Source of the DNA: a virus
Taxonomy: Duplodnaviria > Heunggongvirae > Uroviricota > Caudoviricetes
DNA length: 19,525 bases
Strand: one strand, 5' to 3'
IMG/VR virus record: IMGVR_UViG_2579778674_000015
Span: 1-19,525 of that record
The notes beneath the pieces were generated by a model. It was not told where the DNA came from. It saw only the letters and a program-made list of their open reading frames with translations, and did no database searches. A program made the position numbers and the translations under genes. Below, in pieces: positions 7,719 to 19,525 of this stretch. Within the stretch, counting starts at the first letter, position 1; every line of letters starts with the position of its first letter.

Positions 7719-7951
7719 GCTGCACCTCCGAGATGCTTCATGTTTTTTCCGGAGCGAAAGGTTATAAGCGGCATACTGACGCGGTAATTACGGCCCAGCG
7801 GTTCACAAATCACCTTCTGACATTCACGGTCAACCAGGCTAACACGTAGAACATGCCCTGCAGGCGTGGTGTACCACTGCCCAACTGTAGGAATTGATGT
7901 TTTTTTACGCTGAAATAAACGGTAAATGTTGAGGATCAACGGATTAAGCAT
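7715..7951 (-). CDS. Hypothetical protein (78 aa)
   Basis: GGAGG SD 8 nt before the ATG; stop overlaps the downstream start (ATGA). No recognisable motif. Confidence 0.45.
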   Translation of the reverse strand: MLNPLILNIYRLFQRKKTSIPTVGQWYTTPAGHVLRVSLVDRECQKVICEPLGRNYRVSMPLITFRSGKNMKHLGGAA

Positions 7952-8780
7952 GACGATGCCCTCCGCTGATATTCAGGAGACGGTGAATATGAAAATTAGC
8001 CTTATCCGCCAGACGAATACGTTCAGCCTGCAAGTTAATAAGGGTTTCTACCAGAACCTGATGCGCCTGCGGATCCGAAAGAGTTACCTTGCGCAGAGCA
8101 CGTAGTGCAGTTGTTACATAACTGAGTTTATGTAAGTCTTCATCATTCAGACGAGTGAGGGCTGGGACAGTAGCCATGATGGCAGCCTCCTTGATCGGTG
8201 AAATACTTCCACCACCGGAAACGCCAATTTCGCTGGTGGTGAACTGAACGGGGTTGGCGTAACCGGTGATCAAGGAAACCGGCGCATCTTTCGATGCCCC
8301 CGCCCAGCCCACCATAACTTTGATGTGAGCAAATGCGGACGATAAAAAAGACGCTGGCGCGTCATATATCGCCTTGATCAATTCCAGGACGCCAATCCCG
8401 GCACCCGCTTTATAAGGTGCCTGAACAGTGTAACGTCCCGGAATGGCAGAATCAATGTGCTGGTGGTCCTTCACACTCAACAAAATCACGCCTGAATTTC
8501 CACAAAGGACTAAAGCACTCATGCGGGTAGTCTTTGCGAAGATAGATAACGCGCTGTGTTTCTGGTTCCCAACGAATAACATGGACATAAAGCCCTCTTC
8601 CGTCACGAAACCAGCGGTTAAGTTCCCGCACAACTCGCCCCCCACAGTCAGGTAAAGTTCTCTGTGGTTACTTACAGCCAGGTGATTTGGTAATCTGCAT
8701 TCATGCCGTAACAACAGGTGTTCAGCGACACTGACCACCAGCTGTTGCGACAAACGGTTATTTGCCGTTAAACTGTTCAT
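7944..8780 (-). CDS. Hypothetical protein (278 aa) in the early-right operon
   Basis: Long ORF with GGAG SD, ATGA-coupled to the upstream gene. No Walker or other catalytic motif recognised. Confidence 0.45.
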   Translation of the reverse strand: MNSLTANNRLSQQLVVSVAEHLLLRHECRLPNHLAVSNHRELYLTVGGELCGNLTAGFVTEEGFMSMLFVGNQKHSALSIFAKTTRMSALVLCGNSGVILLSVKDHQHIDSAIPGRYTVQAPYKAGAGIGVLELIKAIYDAPASFLSSAFAHIKVMVGWAGASKDAPVSLITGYANPVQFTTSEIGVSGGGSISPIKEAAIMATVPALTRLNDEDLHKLSYVTTALRALRKVTLSDPQAHQVLVETLINLQAERIRLADKANFHIHRLLNISGGHRHA

Positions 8781-9340
8781 GCGTTAGTTTCTCCACAGAC
8801 ACAAAACGCCACGACGCCCGGAGCTGCACACTCGCGGGCGTCACTCTTTTCTGGAGCGCAAAAGATTTTGTAGACCAGTGCTGCATGCTCTTGGAGCTTC
8901 GAAATTGACAGATACAACTCATCATTAATTGCTGTCTGCTCGTGTGGCTCCACGACCCCATCTTCGATTGCCGAACGAATCTGCTTTGAGTAATTCCCGA
9001 TCTGTTCGATGACTTCCAGCAGGCGCTGGTTTATATCGGCGTTCTCTACTTCCTCAATTTCAGGAAGCGATACGAACACCCCACCAGCAGACTGTGCGAC
9101 AGCATCCGCAATGTAGTGAGTGCCAGCCGCGCGCTGTAAAACCATTGCCCATCCCAGCGGGAAAATCTGATCGCCATCGGCACGAAGGCGGTTAAATAAT
9201 GCGTTCTCTGTTACATCCAGCCAGTCAGCTGCTTCAGCGTAACCACCCGGCAACGCTGCGATAGTTTTTCTGACAGCTTTCACGTACCACTCAGGCTGTT
9301 TTTCTACTTTCCAGTGATACTTACCCACGGTTAGCCTCAT
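8777..9340 (-). CDS. Hypothetical regulatory protein in the CII position
   Basis: 187-aa ORF immediately after the Cro-like gene; assignment is by position only. Confidence 0.4.
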   Translation of the reverse strand: MRLTVGKYHWKVEKQPEWYVKAVRKTIAALPGGYAEAADWLDVTENALFNRLRADGDQIFPLGWAMVLQRAAGTHYIADAVAQSAGGVFVSLPEIEEVENADINQRLLEVIEQIGNYSKQIRSAIEDGVVEPHEQTAINDELYLSISKLQEHAALVYKIFCAPEKSDARECAAPGVVAFCVCGETNA

Positions 9341-9371
9341 CGTTCTGTGGTTAAAAATTGAAGGTGTTCTG

Positions 9372-9572
9372 TTAATCTTTCGGATAGATATCCGGTCTTA
9401 AGTCAGATTTCGTAATTGCACCTGACGTGCATTGCTCAAGTTTTTTCGCCAGCACAAAACTGGCTTTTTTATAACCATTGAAAACCAGCCGTAAGTAGCC
9501 AGGTGTTGAGCCAACTTTTCCGGCCAACTCGCCCTGCTGTTCTTTGGTTAAAGAGTCCCAATACGCTTTCAT
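9372..9572 (-). CDS. Cro-like HTH regulator
   Basis: 66-aa protein MKAYWDSLTKEQQGELAGKVGSTPGYLRLVFNGYKKASFVLAKKLEQCTSGAITKSDLRPDIYPKD, strong SD GGAGGT 9 nt upstream, divergent from the repressor. Track ORF 9372..9875 is an extension overlapping the repressor start. Confidence 0.6.
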   Translation of the reverse strand: MKAYWDSLTKEQQGELAGKVGSTPGYLRLVFNGYKKASFVLAKKLEQCTSGAITKSDLRPDIYPKD

Positions 9573-9662
9573 ACAATATGTACCTCCGATATACATATTA
9601 CATGATTGAAATGAACCTTCAAGATACTTGTACCTTATCGGTACAAAGGTTTTAATTTCGTT
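9573..9662. promoter_or_regulatory. Divergent immunity-region promoters and operators (pR-like / pRM-like)
   Basis: Inverted repeat TTGTACC-n5-GGTACAA at 9628-9646; ATATGTA-n9-TACATAT at 9576-9598 enclosing the cro SD. Minus-strand -35 TTGAAG (9617-9622) and -10 TAATAT (9595-9600). Plus-strand -10-like TTTAAT (9651-9656) places a start near the cI ATG with no SD, suggesting a leaderless cI mRNA. Confidence 0.45.
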
Positions 9663-10337
9663 ATGAAAACAATCCATGACATCCGGCGGTCTAACGCCAG
9701 AAAACTGAGAGATGGTGTTGGCGGGAATTCTTCCTTTGCCACCATGATTGATCGCGAGCCAACCCAGACCAGCAGGTTTATGGGAGATGGTGCTACTAAA
9801 AATATCGGTGACAGCATGGCGCGGCACATCGAAAAATGTTTCGACCTGCCTGTCGGATGGCTTGATCAAGAACACCAGACCACGAACATCACAAAAAAAC
9901 CTGATGTTTCAATCACTAACAAACAAATAACGTTAGTCCCTGTCATATCATGGGTACAGGCCGGAGCATGGAAAGAAGTTGGCTATTCTGAGGTTGATTT
10001 GAGCACAGCAGAAACTTACCCCTGCCCTGTACCCTGTGGCGAAATGACTTATATCTTGCGGGTGATTGGTGATTCAATGATTGATGAGTACCGCCCTGGA
10101 GACATGATTTTTGTTGATCCCGAAGTCCCTGCCTGCCACGGTGACGACGTTATTGCATTGATGCACGATACAGGCGAAACCACCTTCAAGCGATTGATAG
10201 AAGATGGAACACAGCGTTATCTCAAAGCATTAAACCCAAACTGGCCTGAGCCTTACATTAAGATTAACGGTAATTGCTCTATAATTGGTACAGTGATTTT
10301 CTCGGGAAAACCAAGAAGATACACAATAAAGGCCTAA
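9663..10337 (+). CDS. CI/C2-type phage repressor (N-terminal HTH, C-terminal S24 LexA-like autopeptidase)
   Basis: 224 aa; C-terminal ...LVPVISWVQAGAWKE...LRVIGDSMIDEYRPGDMIFVDPEV...TFKRL...INGNCSIIGTVIF with Ser in GDSM and Lys in TFKRL; N-terminal XRE-type HTH. Confidence 0.85.
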   Translation: MKTIHDIRRSNARKLRDGVGGNSSFATMIDREPTQTSRFMGDGATKNIGDSMARHIEKCFDLPVGWLDQEHQTTNITKKPDVSITNKQITLVPVISWVQAGAWKEVGYSEVDLSTAETYPCPVPCGEMTYILRVIGDSMIDEYRPGDMIFVDPEVPACHGDDVIALMHDTGETTFKRLIEDGTQRYLKALNPNWPEPYIKINGNCSIIGTVIFSGKPRRYTIKA

Positions 10338-10349
10338 TCAATATTTATG

Positions 10350-10372
10350 AACCTGCTTCGGCAGGTTTTTTT
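10350..10372 (+). terminator. Rho-independent terminator after the repressor gene
   Basis: aacctgc-UUCG-gcaggtt followed by a 7-T tract, starting 13 nt after the cI stop. Confidence 0.7.
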
Positions 10373-10376
10373 ATAC

Positions 10377-10409
10377 TTGACAATGTACCCATGAGATACA
10401 TAATGTATC
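10377..10409 (+). promoter_or_regulatory. pL-like promoter with overlapping palindromic operator
   Basis: Consensus -35 TTGACA (10377-10382), 16-nt spacer, -10 CATAAT (10399-10404). Palindrome GATACAT-a-ATGTATC (10395-10409) overlaps the -10; ATGTACC (10384-10390) repeats the pR-region half-site. Confidence 0.5.
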
Positions 10410-10822
10410 CAAAAGAAACATGAGGCAGGCAAGATTCAAACAAAATTTGGTTGTAACACGGCGTATGGCACATGCGTCGTTAGCGGTCTGGGGACGTTAA
10501 AGGGGACAATCCACTTCTTGCTCGGGCAAACAAACCAGGTAGCCGGAATGTGCAAGTCAATGATGATGCTGATAAGACGCCTAACCAGCGTGGCGATCCG
10601 GTTTGACGCCTGGGAAGAGACCAGGGTGCAACGATGAGGGCATTTATAGAGCCGCGACAAAGTGTGGTGCCGTAACTGGCTAAGTGCTCTCAGCGTTGTG
10701 GTAATCCGCGAAATGGCGCGGCGGTAAGTATGGCGGGGTTACTCTTTCCCCGTTGAGGACACCGGATTGTCAGGTTGACCATACGCCTGAGTGACAACCC
10801 CACCACAACAGCCACTGCTTTG

Positions 10823-10868
10823 GCGGTACCAGTTTGTACACTTGCTTCCGGCTGGTACCGCTCTTTTT
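10823..10868 (+). terminator. Rho-independent terminator within the early-left leader
   Basis: Perfect 10-bp stem GCGGTACCAG / CTGGTACCGC (10823-10832, 10852-10861), 19-nt loop, then TCTTTTT. Confidence 0.55.
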
Positions 10869-10957
10869 ACAAAATAGAGAAGAGCATCACCGGACGACGG
10901 GCTCATAACCCAATCCATCCGGGCGGCTGCCACCGCAGGTGTTCTTCTCTGTTTTGT
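10869..10957 (+). other. Long-range 17-bp RNA helix (two G-U wobbles) enclosing 55 nt, upstream of the first early-left gene
   Basis: ACAAAATAGAGAAGAGC (10869-10885) pairs with GTTCTTCTCTGTTTTGT (10941-10957). The two non-Watson-Crick positions are G-U in the plus-strand transcript but C-A mismatches on the other strand. Confidence 0.35.
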
Positions 10958-14291: not shown

Positions 14292-17200
14292 TCACACGCT
14301 GCGCCTTCGAGAATATTCATTTAATCGCTGATAACGAACATCTTGCTCCAGTTGTGGAGCAGCTTGAACAATTTGAAGCAAGCATTGCCCCAACTCTCGA
14401 GGCCCCCAGTGTTGTTCGGCAATCACGGCATTCAGCAGGGATAGAGCGTCCGCAGGATATCGGCTGCAAATATCTGATTCTAGCAAAAGGCGAACGTCGT
14501 AGCTAAGGTGTTCGAGCGGTTGCAGCCAGTCCTGCACCACTGCCAAAGCCGCCGGAAATTCACCTCGGGCAGCAATCACCATACGAGTCAACGATTCGGA
14601 TATGCGTGGGGTGGCCAAGTTGCGGGACTTTGGCCAAACCTGTTGCCAAAATGGCTGGACACGATTTTTCCAATACTCCTCGCGCTGATCGCCCGCACCT
14701 TCAAGTGCCTGGTATAACGCCTGCGCGGCTACCTCCAGACCTTCTTGTGGAAGAGCACTAATTGCCGTTCGGAACTCCTCCACGGTATATCCCTCGGTAG
14801 GGCCCAGAGCTGCATAAGTCAGGAAAATAGCGAATTGCTGCCGGTGCTCGCCAAGATCAGAATAGTGATTGGCGCTCTCCAAAAAATCTGACTTGAAAGC
14901 TATCAGCAACGGTTCATACAGGCGTGGCGACCAGAGGAAGCCTTCCCACACAGCTTTTGCTTCGACGGGATTACTCCAAGCAAACAAGGGCAATAGATAC
15001 TGTTCGGTCCAAGGTCGATCTACGCGAAAAAATGCGATCAGCCGCGACCCCAGCAACACCCGACCATGGCGGAATAGCTCTATCTGTACATTACACAATT
15101 TGGTGAAAAGTGTTTTCAATTCAACAGGAAGCAAATCATTGTCATTCGGGTTCTGTTTGAACCATAGGGTGATCAGTGATTGCGTGACATGCCCAATGGG
15201 ATGATTGATCGCCGTAGAAACAGGATCATAGGTCTCAATTCCGTTTCGAATGGTGCTAGACTCTGGGCTTGTTTCTATCATCAGAACCCGACGACAAAGG
15301 GCCAGTAGAATCTCCTCGTGGCAGAGGATGGTCTTCGAAGCCTCCTCCATCCACCAAGTGACAGCGTGGGAAATCTCCTGAAGTACTGCGTCAGGCATGT
15401 CAAGCACCAACGGTGCGGCGTACCGCCACGAACGCAAAATCATCCCTGGTTCAGCCCAAGTCTGCAGAGCTTCACGCCACCGACCAACAGGCCACACATC
15501 ATCTTGTGATAGTTTACGTAACGCATACAGACTGTGAAAAAAGCGCGTACGGCAAACATCACTCCAAGTGTCCTCATAGAAAGGCAGTCTTTCTGGCATA
15601 GGCTTTGCGAGCCATTGCACTAATTCCTGCCACTTACGGGGCGCAATGTCGACATCTATACTCTCCTCGAAGCCTGGATCACCGGTTCCGCTCATCCAGT
15701 GAGAGAATTCATCACGCTCGTTGGTTGCCAGTTGCCATTTTGGGTATGCTGTGGATATTTCCGTCAAACGTGTAGCCGCAGACTCTCCCAAAACAAGGCC
15801 CGCTCCCCTGAGCTTCGCTAGACACAACCAGACGGAATGAGCCACCAAATAATGCCACCTGTCTGCTTCCAAATTATCCTCGTACATCTCGCGCGGAGGC
15901 CCTGCCAAGATAGCAGTTTCCAGACGCTCTTGTGCAATTCCTGTCAGATGTCGTCCCTGCAAAACAAACAGTCTGAATACCTCTCGCCGAGTATCCGTGG
16001 CCCACAACCACCATGAACCGTCCTCTAACAACCAATTAACCCACCGCTCAGGTGGTATGCAGTTGTCTTGGCTTGCGGCAAACAGTGCCAGACGTTTGAA
16101 GGTGGGATATGGCAACTCAAACCAATTCTGAGCAATGCGCGAGGCCTGATCGCTGTCTTTGGCTCGAACGGCTAACCATGAATCCCGAAGTAATTCAATC
16201 AGGCTCACCCAATCGCGGAACCCCCGGTTCTGCCAGTGCGGAGTGATGGACGGCAAATCCCAATGCGAGCGGTCGTGACGATCGTCGGACTCTCCCAACT
16301 CCCGCAACAAGTCCAGTGCATCACGCAACAACTGCTGAAAATCTTCCAACAGGTATGGCAAGGACGATTTCCATGACTCGTCAGCAAGGTCGAACAGGGT
16401 TGAACGTACGTAATCAGCAGTCAGCACCAGCTCCCAATCCACCAATTGCTTGATTCGCAAGGGTTCATCAGTGCTGCTCGAATCGTCTTCACTATAGCGA
16501 AACGGCCGCCTCAACATAACCTTGGGAGAAAGCAACCCGCGTAACTCCAAGCGCAATGTAGTCGTCAAGCCTTCATTCTTTAAGCGGTTTTGCCAACGAT
16601 ACAAATCCAGGTTCTGCAATGGCGATTTCACACGACCACTAAGCAGAAGCCGCCATAAAGTAGACATAGGTGGACCAGGAATAGCCAGGGGGGAATGCAA
16701 GAGAATTTCATCTAACTCAGAAGTCTTACGCTCCCGCATCAGTGCTGCTAAGCGATCTAGTTCGCTCTCAATCAGAAACATCCAACGGTCGTGTATTTGT
16801 CCGCCGCGTTCAGCAATCCATATGATCAACCTAGGGTCGCCCAGATAACGAACTAGCCAACGGGCTATATGGGACATTACGTCATCCCATTTGCTAGCAC
16901 TGACACATCCAGAAACCAGCGACATCTGCGGGGCCAGCTCATAGGGCGCAGGACGCTGAACCAGACTGAATCGGAGTTTCGGGTCAATTTCGACATGCGG
17001 AGATACACAAAAGCGTGGCAGATCGCTGTATTTAAATCGTTCGTCCGAGAAAGCTTTCAATAACCAATCCAGCGGCGGTGCAGGATTGAGTTCCGCAAAG
17101 CGTTTTGCTGGTAAACCTGATTTATCTGACAAGGCCCACAACATCCGACCAACGAAATCGTCCTGACGAGTGCTGTCCTGCGGGCGGGCCAGAGCATGTT

Positions 17201-18119
17201 TGACGACTATAGCCTTTTTGCCCTGTATACCATCTCGATAAGTATCTGCCCAAGCGTGCAACGTTTGATGCAGCACTGAATGATCAGTGGAGCCCGCCGG
17301 TACGGTGTAAAGGATAGGAGTGACCCCTTTGGCCTCCCACTCGATGGCTTTCCGGTGCTCCTGCCCCGGCTCACACTCCCCCAGTGCCCATACTTGTGGT
17401 GTGACTTCACCGAGCCTCCGATCTGCTGCAAGCGCATCCATCATGTAGCGCAGTACCGGGTCGTTGATGCTGTAGCCAACGAAGCAGACCACATAGTTAC
17501 GAAATAACTCACTCACAAAGCGAGCTGCCCAACGCTCAGTGAGATAAGCCAAGCCAAAGTCACCGCTGGTAACAACCAGACGATTCAGGGCAGTATCATC
17601 CGCCTTTTCCGGTAACAGCCCATGCAGGTATACAAGTCCATCCCAGCGGCTGTTTTTTGGAATTGGCAGCATCGGCGCTACATAGGCCTGAAAAGCCTGG
17701 CCTGTACGTTTAGCTGCCACATGAAAGAGACGGTCAAAGTTGGTAGTGACCAATCGAAGGGCACCCTCGCGGCTACGGGCTAAACGTAACAGCGCCGCCT
17801 GAGTATCAATAGCGCCCCTACGACGGAGCTTTGGCTTAAGGGCTTTTTCCAACGCGCGTCGGACGGCTATACGCTGCCCTGGTAAGCGCCGTTCCAGCAA
17901 ATCTAATGTGCCGTCAAATTGCCCACGCTCGAAAACCTCACGCTCAATTTCTGAAAGTGTTGTTCCGTTCCTCTGGTAAATTAGTTCTACCAACCCTTTG
18001 AAACCAGGTAAACCAGCAGGGTAGGAAATGCCTGCTCCACAGAAGAACACAACGCGCCCTTCCTCGTGCGCCTGCAAAAGCTCATCAGGAATATCAGGGC
18101 CGTTGGTAATGAATTGCAT
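14292..18119 (-). CDS. Large SIR2-domain protein (1275 aa): N-terminal sirtuin-like NADase domain plus ~1000-aa unassigned Trp-rich C-terminal region; candidate single-gene anti-phage defence
   Basis: Uninterrupted 3.8-kb ORF, strong SD AGGAGG 7 nt before ATG at 18119. N-terminus has VVFFCGAGISYPAGLPGF (glycine-rich NAD-binding loop), LVTTNFDRL (N127) and LVYLHGLL (H166), matching the Asn/His arrangement of SIR2 defence NADases. The remainder shows no motif I recognise. Confidence 0.8.
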   Translation of the reverse strand: MQFITNGPDIPDELLQAHEEGRVVFFCGAGISYPAGLPGFKGLVELIYQRNGTTLSEIEREVFERGQFDGTLDLLERRLPGQRIAVRRALEKALKPKLRRRGAIDTQAALLRLARSREGALRLVTTNFDRLFHVAAKRTGQAFQAYVAPMLPIPKNSRWDGLVYLHGLLPEKADDTALNRLVVTSGDFGLAYLTERWAARFVSELFRNYVVCFVGYSINDPVLRYMMDALAADRRLGEVTPQVWALGECEPGQEHRKAIEWEAKGVTPILYTVPAGSTDHSVLHQTLHAWADTYRDGIQGKKAIVVKHALARPQDSTRQDDFVGRMLWALSDKSGLPAKRFAELNPAPPLDWLLKAFSDERFKYSDLPRFCVSPHVEIDPKLRFSLVQRPAPYELAPQMSLVSGCVSASKWDDVMSHIARWLVRYLGDPRLIIWIAERGGQIHDRWMFLIESELDRLAALMRERKTSELDEILLHSPLAIPGPPMSTLWRLLLSGRVKSPLQNLDLYRWQNRLKNEGLTTTLRLELRGLLSPKVMLRRPFRYSEDDSSSTDEPLRIKQLVDWELVLTADYVRSTLFDLADESWKSSLPYLLEDFQQLLRDALDLLRELGESDDRHDRSHWDLPSITPHWQNRGFRDWVSLIELLRDSWLAVRAKDSDQASRIAQNWFELPYPTFKRLALFAASQDNCIPPERWVNWLLEDGSWWLWATDTRREVFRLFVLQGRHLTGIAQERLETAILAGPPREMYEDNLEADRWHYLVAHSVWLCLAKLRGAGLVLGESAATRLTEISTAYPKWQLATNERDEFSHWMSGTGDPGFEESIDVDIAPRKWQELVQWLAKPMPERLPFYEDTWSDVCRTRFFHSLYALRKLSQDDVWPVGRWREALQTWAEPGMILRSWRYAAPLVLDMPDAVLQEISHAVTWWMEEASKTILCHEEILLALCRRVLMIETSPESSTIRNGIETYDPVSTAINHPIGHVTQSLITLWFKQNPNDNDLLPVELKTLFTKLCNVQIELFRHGRVLLGSRLIAFFRVDRPWTEQYLLPLFAWSNPVEAKAVWEGFLWSPRLYEPLLIAFKSDFLESANHYSDLGEHRQQFAIFLTYAALGPTEGYTVEEFRTAISALPQEGLEVAAQALYQALEGAGDQREEYWKNRVQPFWQQVWPKSRNLATPRISESLTRMVIAARGEFPAALAVVQDWLQPLEHLSYDVRLLLESDICSRYPADALSLLNAVIAEQHWGPRELGQCLLQIVQAAPQLEQDVRYQRLNEYSRRRSV

Positions 18120-18301: not shown

Positions 18302-19525
18302 TCATTTCGAGCCTGAACGAGTACAAGTAACAATCGATTCAACTCTCTCCCACCATGCCTGGTAGGCTTTACGCTGTTCTTCTAGATAATCACTCTTGTC
18401 ATAAACTTGCCATACACCTGGCAGTTTATGACCGAGCATTATTTCAGCAATATGAGGCGCAGTAAGATCAGAAAAGTTTGTTCGTGCTGTTCGTCTCAAA
18501 TCATGAAGAGACCAGTGAGGAAATTGATACCCCAAACGCCGCCATGCGTACTGCATTAAATTGTAAGGCAGCGACTGCAATGATGTCCGACCAACTGGTT
18601 CCCTGCTTCCTTCCTTAGTAAAAAGCATATCGGAACCGTTGTTCATAGAGATAACGTATTTTATAAGCTCTTCAACCGGTTCAATAATGGGCCGCTTTAG
18701 CGGTTCGCCTGTTATATCCCCTGTCTTATGTCGTTCTGGTGGTACAGTCCATATTTTATTAATGAAATCAAAATCGTCCACCTTGGCAGTAATTAGCTCT
18801 GAACTACGGCAACCAAAATGCAGCAATAGTTTAATGAAGGCCCGGTATTTAGGAACCATTCGAGAACCATCGATCGCAGCATAAAGGATTTTAATTTCAT
18901 CATGTGTCAGAAACCGTTTCTTCTGACCTTTACGGATATCCATATCTTTACCCGTGATATCCGACAGCGGGCGAGTTTCAATGAGCTTTCTCTTATACGC
19001 CCAGACATGGGCCTGCTTTGCGTTAATTAGCAATCGGTCTGCTATTGCTGGAGTCTTAGTGCTAAGAGGCTCCAGGACTTCTAACCAATCATGCAATGTA
19101 GCTGCATCGTGAGGGATATTCCCGATTTTAGAGAACAGGTGCAGCTCAAACGAGCGGAGTATCTGTTCAGAACCTTTTTTATTTTTTACACAATATGCTT
19201 CATACCAAGCACGGATCACAGATTCTACCGTCATGGCTTCAGTAGCTTTACGTTTTTCTGCCAGCTTGACCAATCGTGGATTGCGGTTTGACTCGAGTTC
19301 ACCACGAAGACGGATAACTTCTTCTCTGGCCTCTTTTAGTCCAGTTGCCGGGTAAGTTCCGATATCAAGACGCTCACCTTTCCCCGCCCACTGATAACGA
19401 TATTGGAACACTACGCGACCTTTCGGTGATACTCTAACAGACAGACCATCACGATCGGATTTAACCAAAACCTTATCACGTTCCTTTCCAACGACTGAAC
19501 GCAACCACGCATCAGACAGCGCCAT
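18302..19525 (-). CDS. int: Tyrosine integrase (P4-type, N-terminal arm-binding domain plus catalytic domain)
   Basis: 407 aa; start codon is the last three bases of the window (MALSDAWLRS...). Typical N-terminus (GLSVRVSPKGRVVFQYRYQWAGKGERLDIGTYP), HDLRRTARTN box and C-terminal Tyr region (WQVYDKSDY). Confidence 0.9.
   Translation of the reverse strand: MALSDAWLRSVVGKERDKVLVKSDRDGLSVRVSPKGRVVFQYRYQWAGKGERLDIGTYPATGLKEAREEVIRLRGELESNRNPRLVKLAEKRKATEAMTVESVIRAWYEAYCVKNKKGSEQILRSFELHLFSKIGNIPHDAATLHDWLEVLEPLSTKTPAIADRLLINAKQAHVWAYKRKLIETRPLSDITGKDMDIRKGQKKRFLTHDEIKILYAAIDGSRMVPKYRAFIKLLLHFGCRSSELITAKVDDFDFINKIWTVPPERHKTGDITGEPLKRPIIEPVEELIKYVISMNNGSDMLFTKEGSREPVGRTSLQSLPYNLMQYAWRRLGYQFPHWSLHDLRRTARTNFSDLTAPHIAEIMLGHKLPGVWQVYDKSDYLEEQRKAYQAWWERVESIVTCTRSGSK

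Follow-up and report, generated by a model that had tools for sequence, protein, structure and literature searches.

Predicted operator map of the divergent cI/cro region of an e14/SfV-type prophage and support for a leaderless repressor mRNA

Background

The genes that E. coli genome annotation calls ymfK, ymfT and ymfL are the immunity genes of e14, a cryptic prophage of E. coli K-12. Transcription start sites of K-12 have been mapped by differential RNA-seq (Romero et al. 2014; PMC4681348). Just five K-12 mRNAs were found to have leaders shorter than 10 nt, ymfK of e14 among them, and Table S3 of that paper places a class I start at the first base of ymfK, i.e. a leader of 0 nt. A 2024 study reported that e14 genes are induced by DNA damage (AZT) and proposed weak LexA boxes for them. 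In the GenBank record of Shigella phage SfV (U82619.2), the stretch that corresponds to positions 9578-9646 of the sequence studied here is annotated as a 'putative operator region' and a terminator is annotated after cI; individual operators and pL sites are not part of that record. No footprint, EMSA, SELEX or ChIP data for YmfK/CohE or YmfT/CroE were found in the searchable literature. The promoters of ymfT and ymfJ were part of a published Reg-Seq library. Work on mEpimmI was set aside as a source on this repressor, as it deals with a different repressor group.

Here we describe the immunity region of a viral sequence (Caudoviricetes; IMG/VR record IMGVR_UViG_2579778674_000015), the whole 19,525-nt stretch of which is referred to as the window. 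Positions 9573-9662 separate the divergent cI and cro genes of an e14/SfV-type prophage. Both the locus and the kind of system are already known, as an annotated lambda-style switch that has been partly mapped by experiment. A sequence-only reading of the window had described this region as a compact cI-cro switch with recurring half-sites and a probably leaderless repressor mRNA. Its observation is confirmed here and its interpretation is supported. We add to it a third operator in the intergenic region (OR2), a second operator at pL (OL2) and the e14/SfV identity.

Methods

The dyad WTGTAYC-N5-GRTACAW (19 bp) was searched over the whole 19.5-kb window with up to two mismatches allowed, and the number of matches was compared with that in 200 shuffles. 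In order to avoid circularity, a weight matrix was trained only on the OR3 and OL1 sites of other genomes (38 distinct sites) and was then used to score the window. Related loci were collected by scanning one genome per species, which yielded 24 loci with cI 67-100% identical, from Escherichia, Klebsiella, Pantoea, Serratia, Erwinia, Edwardsiella, Symbiopectobacterium and others. Four further loci with cI 43-61% identical, from Providencia, Rosenbergiella, Salinicola (a genus of the Halomonadaceae) and Morganella, brought the total to 28 (cI 43-100%). The promoters pR and pRM were placed by conservation together with the published e14 start site.

Results

The cro ATG is read on the minus strand from CAT at 9570-9572 and the cI ATG stands at 9663. 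The gap between them is exactly 9573-9662, and the 90-bp compact divergent region that had been claimed therefore has the coordinates given for it, as checked on the sequence. Over 9300-10500, the DNA is 95-99% identical to that of Shigella phages SfV and SfIV, of phages cdtI, 2H10 and Ayreon, and of the Stx2c series. SfV differs from the window by a few spacer substitutions. The e14 intergenic region shows 4 differences from the window, none of which alters a promoter hexamer, and it has the same set of operators; OL1, OL2 and pL are likewise the same in e14, and the two sequences diverge after 10422. e14 is a defective 15-kb remnant, whereas the window has a fuller early region and different genes 3' of pL. 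Thus the repressor, Cro and the operators are near-identical within an e14/SfV immunity group to which this locus belongs, with single substitutions between the operators, and the same immunity is predicted for its members. Of 5426 complete E. coli genomes, 2251 contained a match to a 1.2-kb query comprising cI, cro and their flanks, and 1324 contained at least 80% of the query. The immunity type is accordingly widespread, occurring in E. coli genomes, Shigella serotype-converting phages, cdt phages and Stx2c phages.

The plus-strand gene (9663-10337) encodes a 224-aa repressor of the YmfK/CohE type that shares 223/224 residues with K-12 YmfK and 222/224 with the cI of SfV. A Peptidase_S24 domain was detected at E = 1.5e-26, the C-terminal domain shows homology to its lambda cI counterpart, and the motifs for self-cleavage are conserved, namely an Ala-Gly site (A100-G101) and a Ser/Lys dyad (S138/K176); the gene had been called cI, and these features bear that out. 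The N-terminal domain, which Pfam HTH models did not recognise, forms a four-helix HTH fold in the predicted structure, with helices 22-28 and 33-40 as the predicted HTH, and it has a weak sequence match to the N-terminal domain of SPC32H Rep. The predicted combination is that of lambda-type repressors, an N-terminal HTH joined to a self-cleaving S24 domain. Within the predicted recognition helix (33-40), T34, Q35, S37 and R38 are invariant or nearly so, a constancy that would fit the unchanged TGTAC half-site described below. In the alignment of homologues, M1 and K2 are invariant and the N-terminus reads MK(T). In some homologues (loci L025 and L033, proteins P0025 and P0080), the annotated N-terminus has 2-3 additional residues (MVG- or MD-) before the conserved MKT. 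These residues are probably miscalled, since the conserved -10 sits 6-7 nt before the MKT ATG.

The minus-strand gene (9372-9572), annotated as cro in SfV, encodes a protein of the YmfT/CroE type that is identical to K-12 YmfT at 65/66 residues. It matches PHROG 35 (transcriptional repressor) and, weakly, Pfam YdaS, and is a Cro-type HTH protein of 66 aa, as its earlier designation implied. The gene that adjoins cro on its downstream side is CII-like and belongs to the YmfL/CP76 family. The repressor and cro genes are hence divergent across a 90-bp gap, as expected for a lambda-type switch.

Three candidate operators occupy the intergenic region. The perfect TTGTACC-N5-GGTACAA repeat noticed earlier lies at 9628-9646, with 7-nt arms that are 100% complementary, and corresponds to OR3 (TTGTACC-TTATC-GGTACAA), which matches the dyad perfectly, scores 24.7 bits with the relatives' matrix, and covers the pRM -35 and spacer. 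OR1 (ATGTACC-TCCGA-TATACAT; 9578-9596) has 1 mismatch and scores 14.8 bits; it takes in the cro Shine-Dalgarno (SD) sequence and the predicted pR start and extends into the end of the pR -10. The right half of OR1 reads TATACAT in the window versus TGTACAT in e14, the e14 version being closer to the consensus. A second repeat that had been reported here, ATATGTA-N9-TACATAT at 9576-9598, does enclose CCTCC at 9583-9587, i.e. the GGAGG of cro on the minus strand. OR2 (ATGAACC-TTCAA-GATACTT; 9611-9629, centre 9620) has 2 mismatches and scores 11.2 bits; it overlaps the pR -35, and its centre is at -43 relative to the cI start. The centres of OR1 and OR2 are 33 bp apart and those of OR2 and OR3 17 bp apart, which means that the latter two 19-bp sites share 2 bp. 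A longer imperfect palindrome (9569-9605; 14-nt arms, 86% complementary) is centred on OR1 and includes the cro ATG. It was considered as a separate element and dropped, being kept, in part, only in close relatives.

Two further candidate operators were found at pL. This plus-strand promoter (TTGACA-16-CATAAT; 10377-10404) matches 11/12 consensus positions, is annotated as a promoter in phage Ayreon and recurs in nearly every relative sharing this layout. OL1 (ATGTACC-CATGA-GATACAT; 10383-10401; 0 mismatches, 24.1 bits) fills the pL spacer and overlaps the pL -10, and the recurrence of ATGTACC at pL (10383-10389, inside TTGACA-16-CATAAT) is thereby verified. OL2 (ATGTATC-CAAAA-GAAACAT; 10403-10421; 1 mismatch, 15.2 bits) covers the region of the predicted pL start, near 10411, at 20 bp from OL1, centre to centre. 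In every relative with this layout, the pL region runs in the same order: terminator, TTGACA, ATGTACC-N5-GRTACAT, AATGTACC and a weaker right half. OL1 is conserved with a free spacer; in OL2 the left half ATGTACC is kept and the right half is degenerate. The intrinsic terminator of the cI transcript (10349-10375, plus strand; an 8-pair stem followed by a T run) abuts the pL -35, is annotated in SfV and Ayreon, and is found in all relatives.

The 19-bp dyad was matched 5 times in the window against 0.62 expected, and 5 matches were reached in 0/200 shuffles. All five matches lie over promoters, in the two control regions (OR and pL), such that several dyads sit on the divergent promoters and further copies occur at pL, as in a lambda-type switch. 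With the matrix trained on other genomes, the five sites score 11.2-24.7 bits and the next best position in the 19.5 kb scores 1.4 bits. The heptamer WTGTACC by itself is not enriched in the window (6 found, 3.3 expected). Nor is a perfect 7-bp inverted repeat unusual here: the window has 19 (~8 expected), and the perfect repeat alone is therefore not significant. The signal is carried only by the full dyad, not by the heptamer or the single repeat.

Conservation follows the same sites. Among the 24 loci, the majority base accounts for fractions of 0.95 (OR1), 0.92 (OR2) and 0.98 (OR3) in the operator cores, compared with 0.43 in the OR3 spacer and 0.50 in the six bases between the pRM -10 and the ATG. 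The arms of OR3 are constant in sequence, without compensatory changes, and its loop is free to vary, which is the signature of a protein-binding site rather than of an RNA hairpin. The left half of OR2 is nearly invariant and its right half varies (GGTAC, GATAC, GACAC or GGCCC). Most relatives in the Enterobacteriaceae conserve the non-consensus half-site TGAAC in OR2; the left half is the canonical TGTACC in Erwinia, Providencia, Salinicola and Morganella, and AAGTTCC in Rosenbergiella. That the canonical form appears in three of the four distant loci is the strongest argument for OR2 as a genuine operator. The three-site layout and the TGTAC half-sites are kept in all four distant loci, despite cI identities of 43-61%. 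A motif comparison across homologous immunity regions had been proposed as a check, and over the 28 loci it shows near-invariant half-sites separated by variable spacers. The suggestion that TGTACC is a common repressor half-site gains from this comparison, the motif being present at both OR and pL, and we regard it as the probable repressor half-site.

On the minus strand, the cro SD (GGAGG, 9583-9587) lies inside OR1 and is predicted to pair with the anti-SD at -10.8 kcal/mol. Its CCTCC complement is found in 23/24 aligned loci and in 26/28 overall, the exceptions being CCCCC in Rosenbergiella (L031) and CCTTC in Morganella (L033). The predicted pR consists of a -10 TAATAT (9595-9600, minus strand), in which -11A and -7T are invariant, and a -35 TTGAAG (9617-9622, minus strand) at a 16-nt spacer, of which TTG is invariant in the 24 loci. 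Relatives have TATAAT, CATAAT or TAGAAT at the same place as the -10. The pR start is predicted near 9588 on the minus strand. A consensus promoter scan called neither pR nor pRM, because each matches the consensus at only 8/12 positions.

The repressor promoter pRM comprises a -35 TTGTAC (9628-9633, plus strand), which is invariant and whose position fits the mapped e14 start, a 17-nt spacer, and a -10 TTTAAT (9651-9656, plus strand) that lies 6 nt before the ATG and is identical in K-12 e14. Between this -10 and the ATG the sequence reads TTCGTT. The hexamer TnTAAT occurs 6 nt before the ATG in 19/24 loci and at 7-9 nt in nearly all others; in one locus (L025) the automated choice of the -10 was ambiguous and TTAAAT at 7 nt is likelier. 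From OR3 through the ATG, e14 and the window differ at two bases, which are outside the promoter hexamers and the stretch from -10 to ATG. Since the -10, the next six bases and the ATG are the same in both, the e14 start carries over to the window, and the cI transcription start is placed on the A of the ATG at 9663 (plus strand). The conclusion that the cI mRNA is leaderless, as is the mRNA from lambda pRM, is thus supported, the start having been measured in K-12 e14 and not in this strain. It agrees with the prior suggestion that the best plus-strand -10 would begin transcription at or near the ATG, and the e14 leader of 0 nt (PMC4681348) makes that suggestion specific.

The ATG of cI had also been described as having no SD, and this holds: the anti-SD duplex is predicted at -3.4 kcal/mol for cI in the window, against the much stronger value for cro. 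Across relatives, the anti-SD pairing of cI ranges from about -1 to -5 kcal/mol, with one locus positive. No conserved SD was found upstream of cI among the 24 loci, and AAGG (9646-9649, 13 nt upstream of the ATG), the single purine run there, is not kept.

Several other features of the window were recorded. About 350 nt 3' of pL (10422-10775, plus strand) are without a convincing ORF; this stretch differs from SfV and e14, which like many relatives have a conserved CAGGCAGGACGCCCACGAAGTAGCCGCC element there, and its predicted fold is mildly better than that of shuffles (z = -2.0). At the 3' end of cI (~10290-10415), Rfam gave sub-threshold matches only, to rsmX and STnc50. A 2026 paper described an sRNA, svsR (co293-like), at the cI 3' end in NC-SV, a prophage of E. 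coli NC101 that integrates at icd, the same locus as e14. On the minus strand, Rfam matches at gathering level were obtained to C4 antisense RNA (82 bits) and isrK (64 bits), at 8232-8319 and 8344-8420, respectively. They lie on the same strand inside an ORF of 278 aa (7944-8780, minus strand) of the Ash family, which in SfV bears the label 'immunity region'. These matches suggest a second, RNA-controlled module (P1 immI- or Gifsy-like) on the pR operon, and raise the question of whether part of this ORF call may really be RNA. Between the pL-operon genes and the integrase gene (18302-19525, minus strand) is a 1275-aa ORF with a SIR2-like domain (14292-18119, minus strand) that looks like a defence-type cargo gene. 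CTG-N10-CAG occurs 13 times across the window (5.7 expected). LexA-box-like sequences include CTGTTTATTTTTACAG (1822-1837), at the start of a DNA methylase ORF (795-1847), and CTGTGGTTACTTACAG (8662-8677), just upstream of the isrK/C4 region.

Discussion

We interpret this region as a lambda-type bistable immunity switch of the e14/SfV immunity group, with a probability of roughly 0.85. It is hypothesized that a dimer of the cI-like repressor binds dyads with the core TGTACC-N5-GGTACA, three in OR and two at pL. Occupancy of OR1 would block the -10/+1 region of pR together with the cro ribosome-binding site, occupancy of OR2 would block the pR -35, and occupancy of OL1 and OL2 would block the core promoter of pL. 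As the operators cover both pR and pL, both lytic promoters would be shut off. Repressor at OR2 may in addition stimulate the weak pRM (TTGTAC-17-TTTAAT), by analogy with lambda, in that the centre of OR2 at -43 has the position of lambda OR2; the argument is one of geometry. OR3 could serve negative autoregulation of cI, or shut-off of pRM by Cro, and opposite site preferences of the repressor and Cro are predicted. In a lysogen, the cI mRNA would start leaderless from pRM and end at the terminator just before pL. Upon DNA damage, RecA-stimulated self-cleavage of cI would lead to prophage induction, as is to be expected from the Ala-Gly site, the Ser/Lys dyad and the homology to the lambda cI C-terminal domain, and as would fit the damage induction of e14.

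Some features count against this interpretation. Both pR and pRM are far from consensus (8/12), OR2 scores lowest of the five sites, and some of its conservation can be put down to the promoter, in that CAA is the TTG of the pR -35. One could thus propose that OR has two operators only, OR1 and OR3, and that 9611-9629 is kept as the -35 and spacer of pR: OR2 has the lowest score and a variable right half, its invariant CAAG contains the -35 TTG, and it overlaps OR3 by 2 bp. We consider this improbable. The ATGAACC half lies in the pR spacer, where RNA polymerase should impose little constraint, yet it is nearly invariant; it becomes the canonical TGTACC at the exact position in Erwinia, Providencia, Salinicola and Morganella; and the site as a whole exceeds every site beyond the control regions by ~10 bits and is centred where lambda OR2 is. 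The perfect repeat at 9628-9646 was itself listed by a terminator scan, as a 7-pair stem with a 5-nt loop followed by AGGTTTTAAT, and might accordingly be read as an RNA hairpin or intrinsic terminator and not as a protein site. That reading was rejected and we give it next to no credence: the arms are invariant without covariation around a variable loop, the T-rich tail is not conserved, and an Rfam search of 9300-10900, run both at the gathering threshold and at E<=1, yielded no family apart from two sub-threshold chance matches. Moreover, four other sites carry the OR3 half-site without being such hairpins, and a terminator just before cI would block its expression from any upstream promoter.

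Binding of the phage repressor to OR and pL must further be weighed against direct repression of the switch by host LexA through weak LexA boxes. Such control is suggested by the 2024 study, in which AZT induction of e14 genes, among them ymfK, ymfT and ymfL, depended on LexA cleavage and weak e14 LexA boxes were proposed. No CTG-N10-CAG occurs in 9300-10500, however, the dyads are unlike a LexA box, and cI carries self-cleavage motifs of its own. A phage repressor that is cleaved with the help of RecA would likewise be expected to make induction depend on LexA cleavage, since RecA is LexA-controlled, and we regard direct LexA control as very unlikely. As regards translation, cI could be made mainly from a leadered transcript, for example one from an upstream promoter dependent on CII (YmfL), with the weak AAGG as the ribosome-binding element and the leaderless mRNA as a minor species. 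The CII-like activator gene adjoining cro makes a pRE-like promoter plausible, and AAGG lies 13 nt upstream of the ATG. Relatives do not keep AAGG and do conserve the distance from -10 to ATG, and the class I start mapped in the e14 lysogen falls on the ATG (PMC4681348), so that leadered translation as the main route is unlikely, if less so than the alternatives above. A leadered establishment transcript would in any case complement the switch described here and not exclude it.

How far the wiring of the switch follows lambda is a separate matter. Pairwise cooperativity in the lambda style cannot be assumed with spacings of 33 and 17 bp and a 2-bp overlap between OR2 and OR3. The best match to consensus, OR3, lies on the promoter of the repressor itself. 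In lambda, similarity to the consensus does not predict the order of occupancy, and for this reason no order of occupancy was derived from the matrix scores. A non-lambda logic is conceivable, in which binding to OR2 and OR3 is mutually exclusive or a different oligomer is involved; exclusivity may be considered because OR3 lies on the repressor's own -35, 17 bp corresponds approximately to the opposite face of the helix, and OR2 is 33 bp from OR1. We hold this idea tentatively, as the less probable of the two kinds of wiring. If it were true, damage induction of e14 would be a matter of YmfK at five operators and not of weak LexA boxes. More generally, the five-operator map offers a testable account of silencing and of induction by DNA damage, including in K-12 e14, and could revise the idea that weak LexA boxes control e14.

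Compared with lambda, the details of which are established knowledge, the locus shares the divergent cI and cro genes, multiple dyads over both promoters, and operators at pL. An operator is centred at about -42/-43 from the pRM start in both systems, the cI mRNA is leaderless in both, and both have a weak pRM with its -10 located 6 nt before the ATG. The lambda pRM reads TAGATT-TAACGT-ATG, which is the same -10-to-ATG geometry as in the window. The operator sequences are unrelated, TGTACC-N5-GGTACA here versus TATCACCGCCAGAGGTA in lambda, and the centre spacings are 33 and 17 bp here versus 24 and 23 bp in lambda. Two OL sites were detected here, whereas lambda has three. Unlike in lambda, cI is monocistronic with its own terminator, only ~750 bp separate OL from OR, Cro is an HTH protein of the YdaS type and does not have the lambda Cro fold, and CII is of the YmfL/CP76 type. 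Leaderless mRNAs are also known for racR of Rac and dicA of Qin, which together with ymfK are in the K-12 list of genes with a start at most 10 nt from the start codon (PMC4681348). All three encode repressors of mobile elements, and their repressor families and operators are unrelated. The locus thus reveals no new kind of mechanism and instead displays variations inside a known kind of system.
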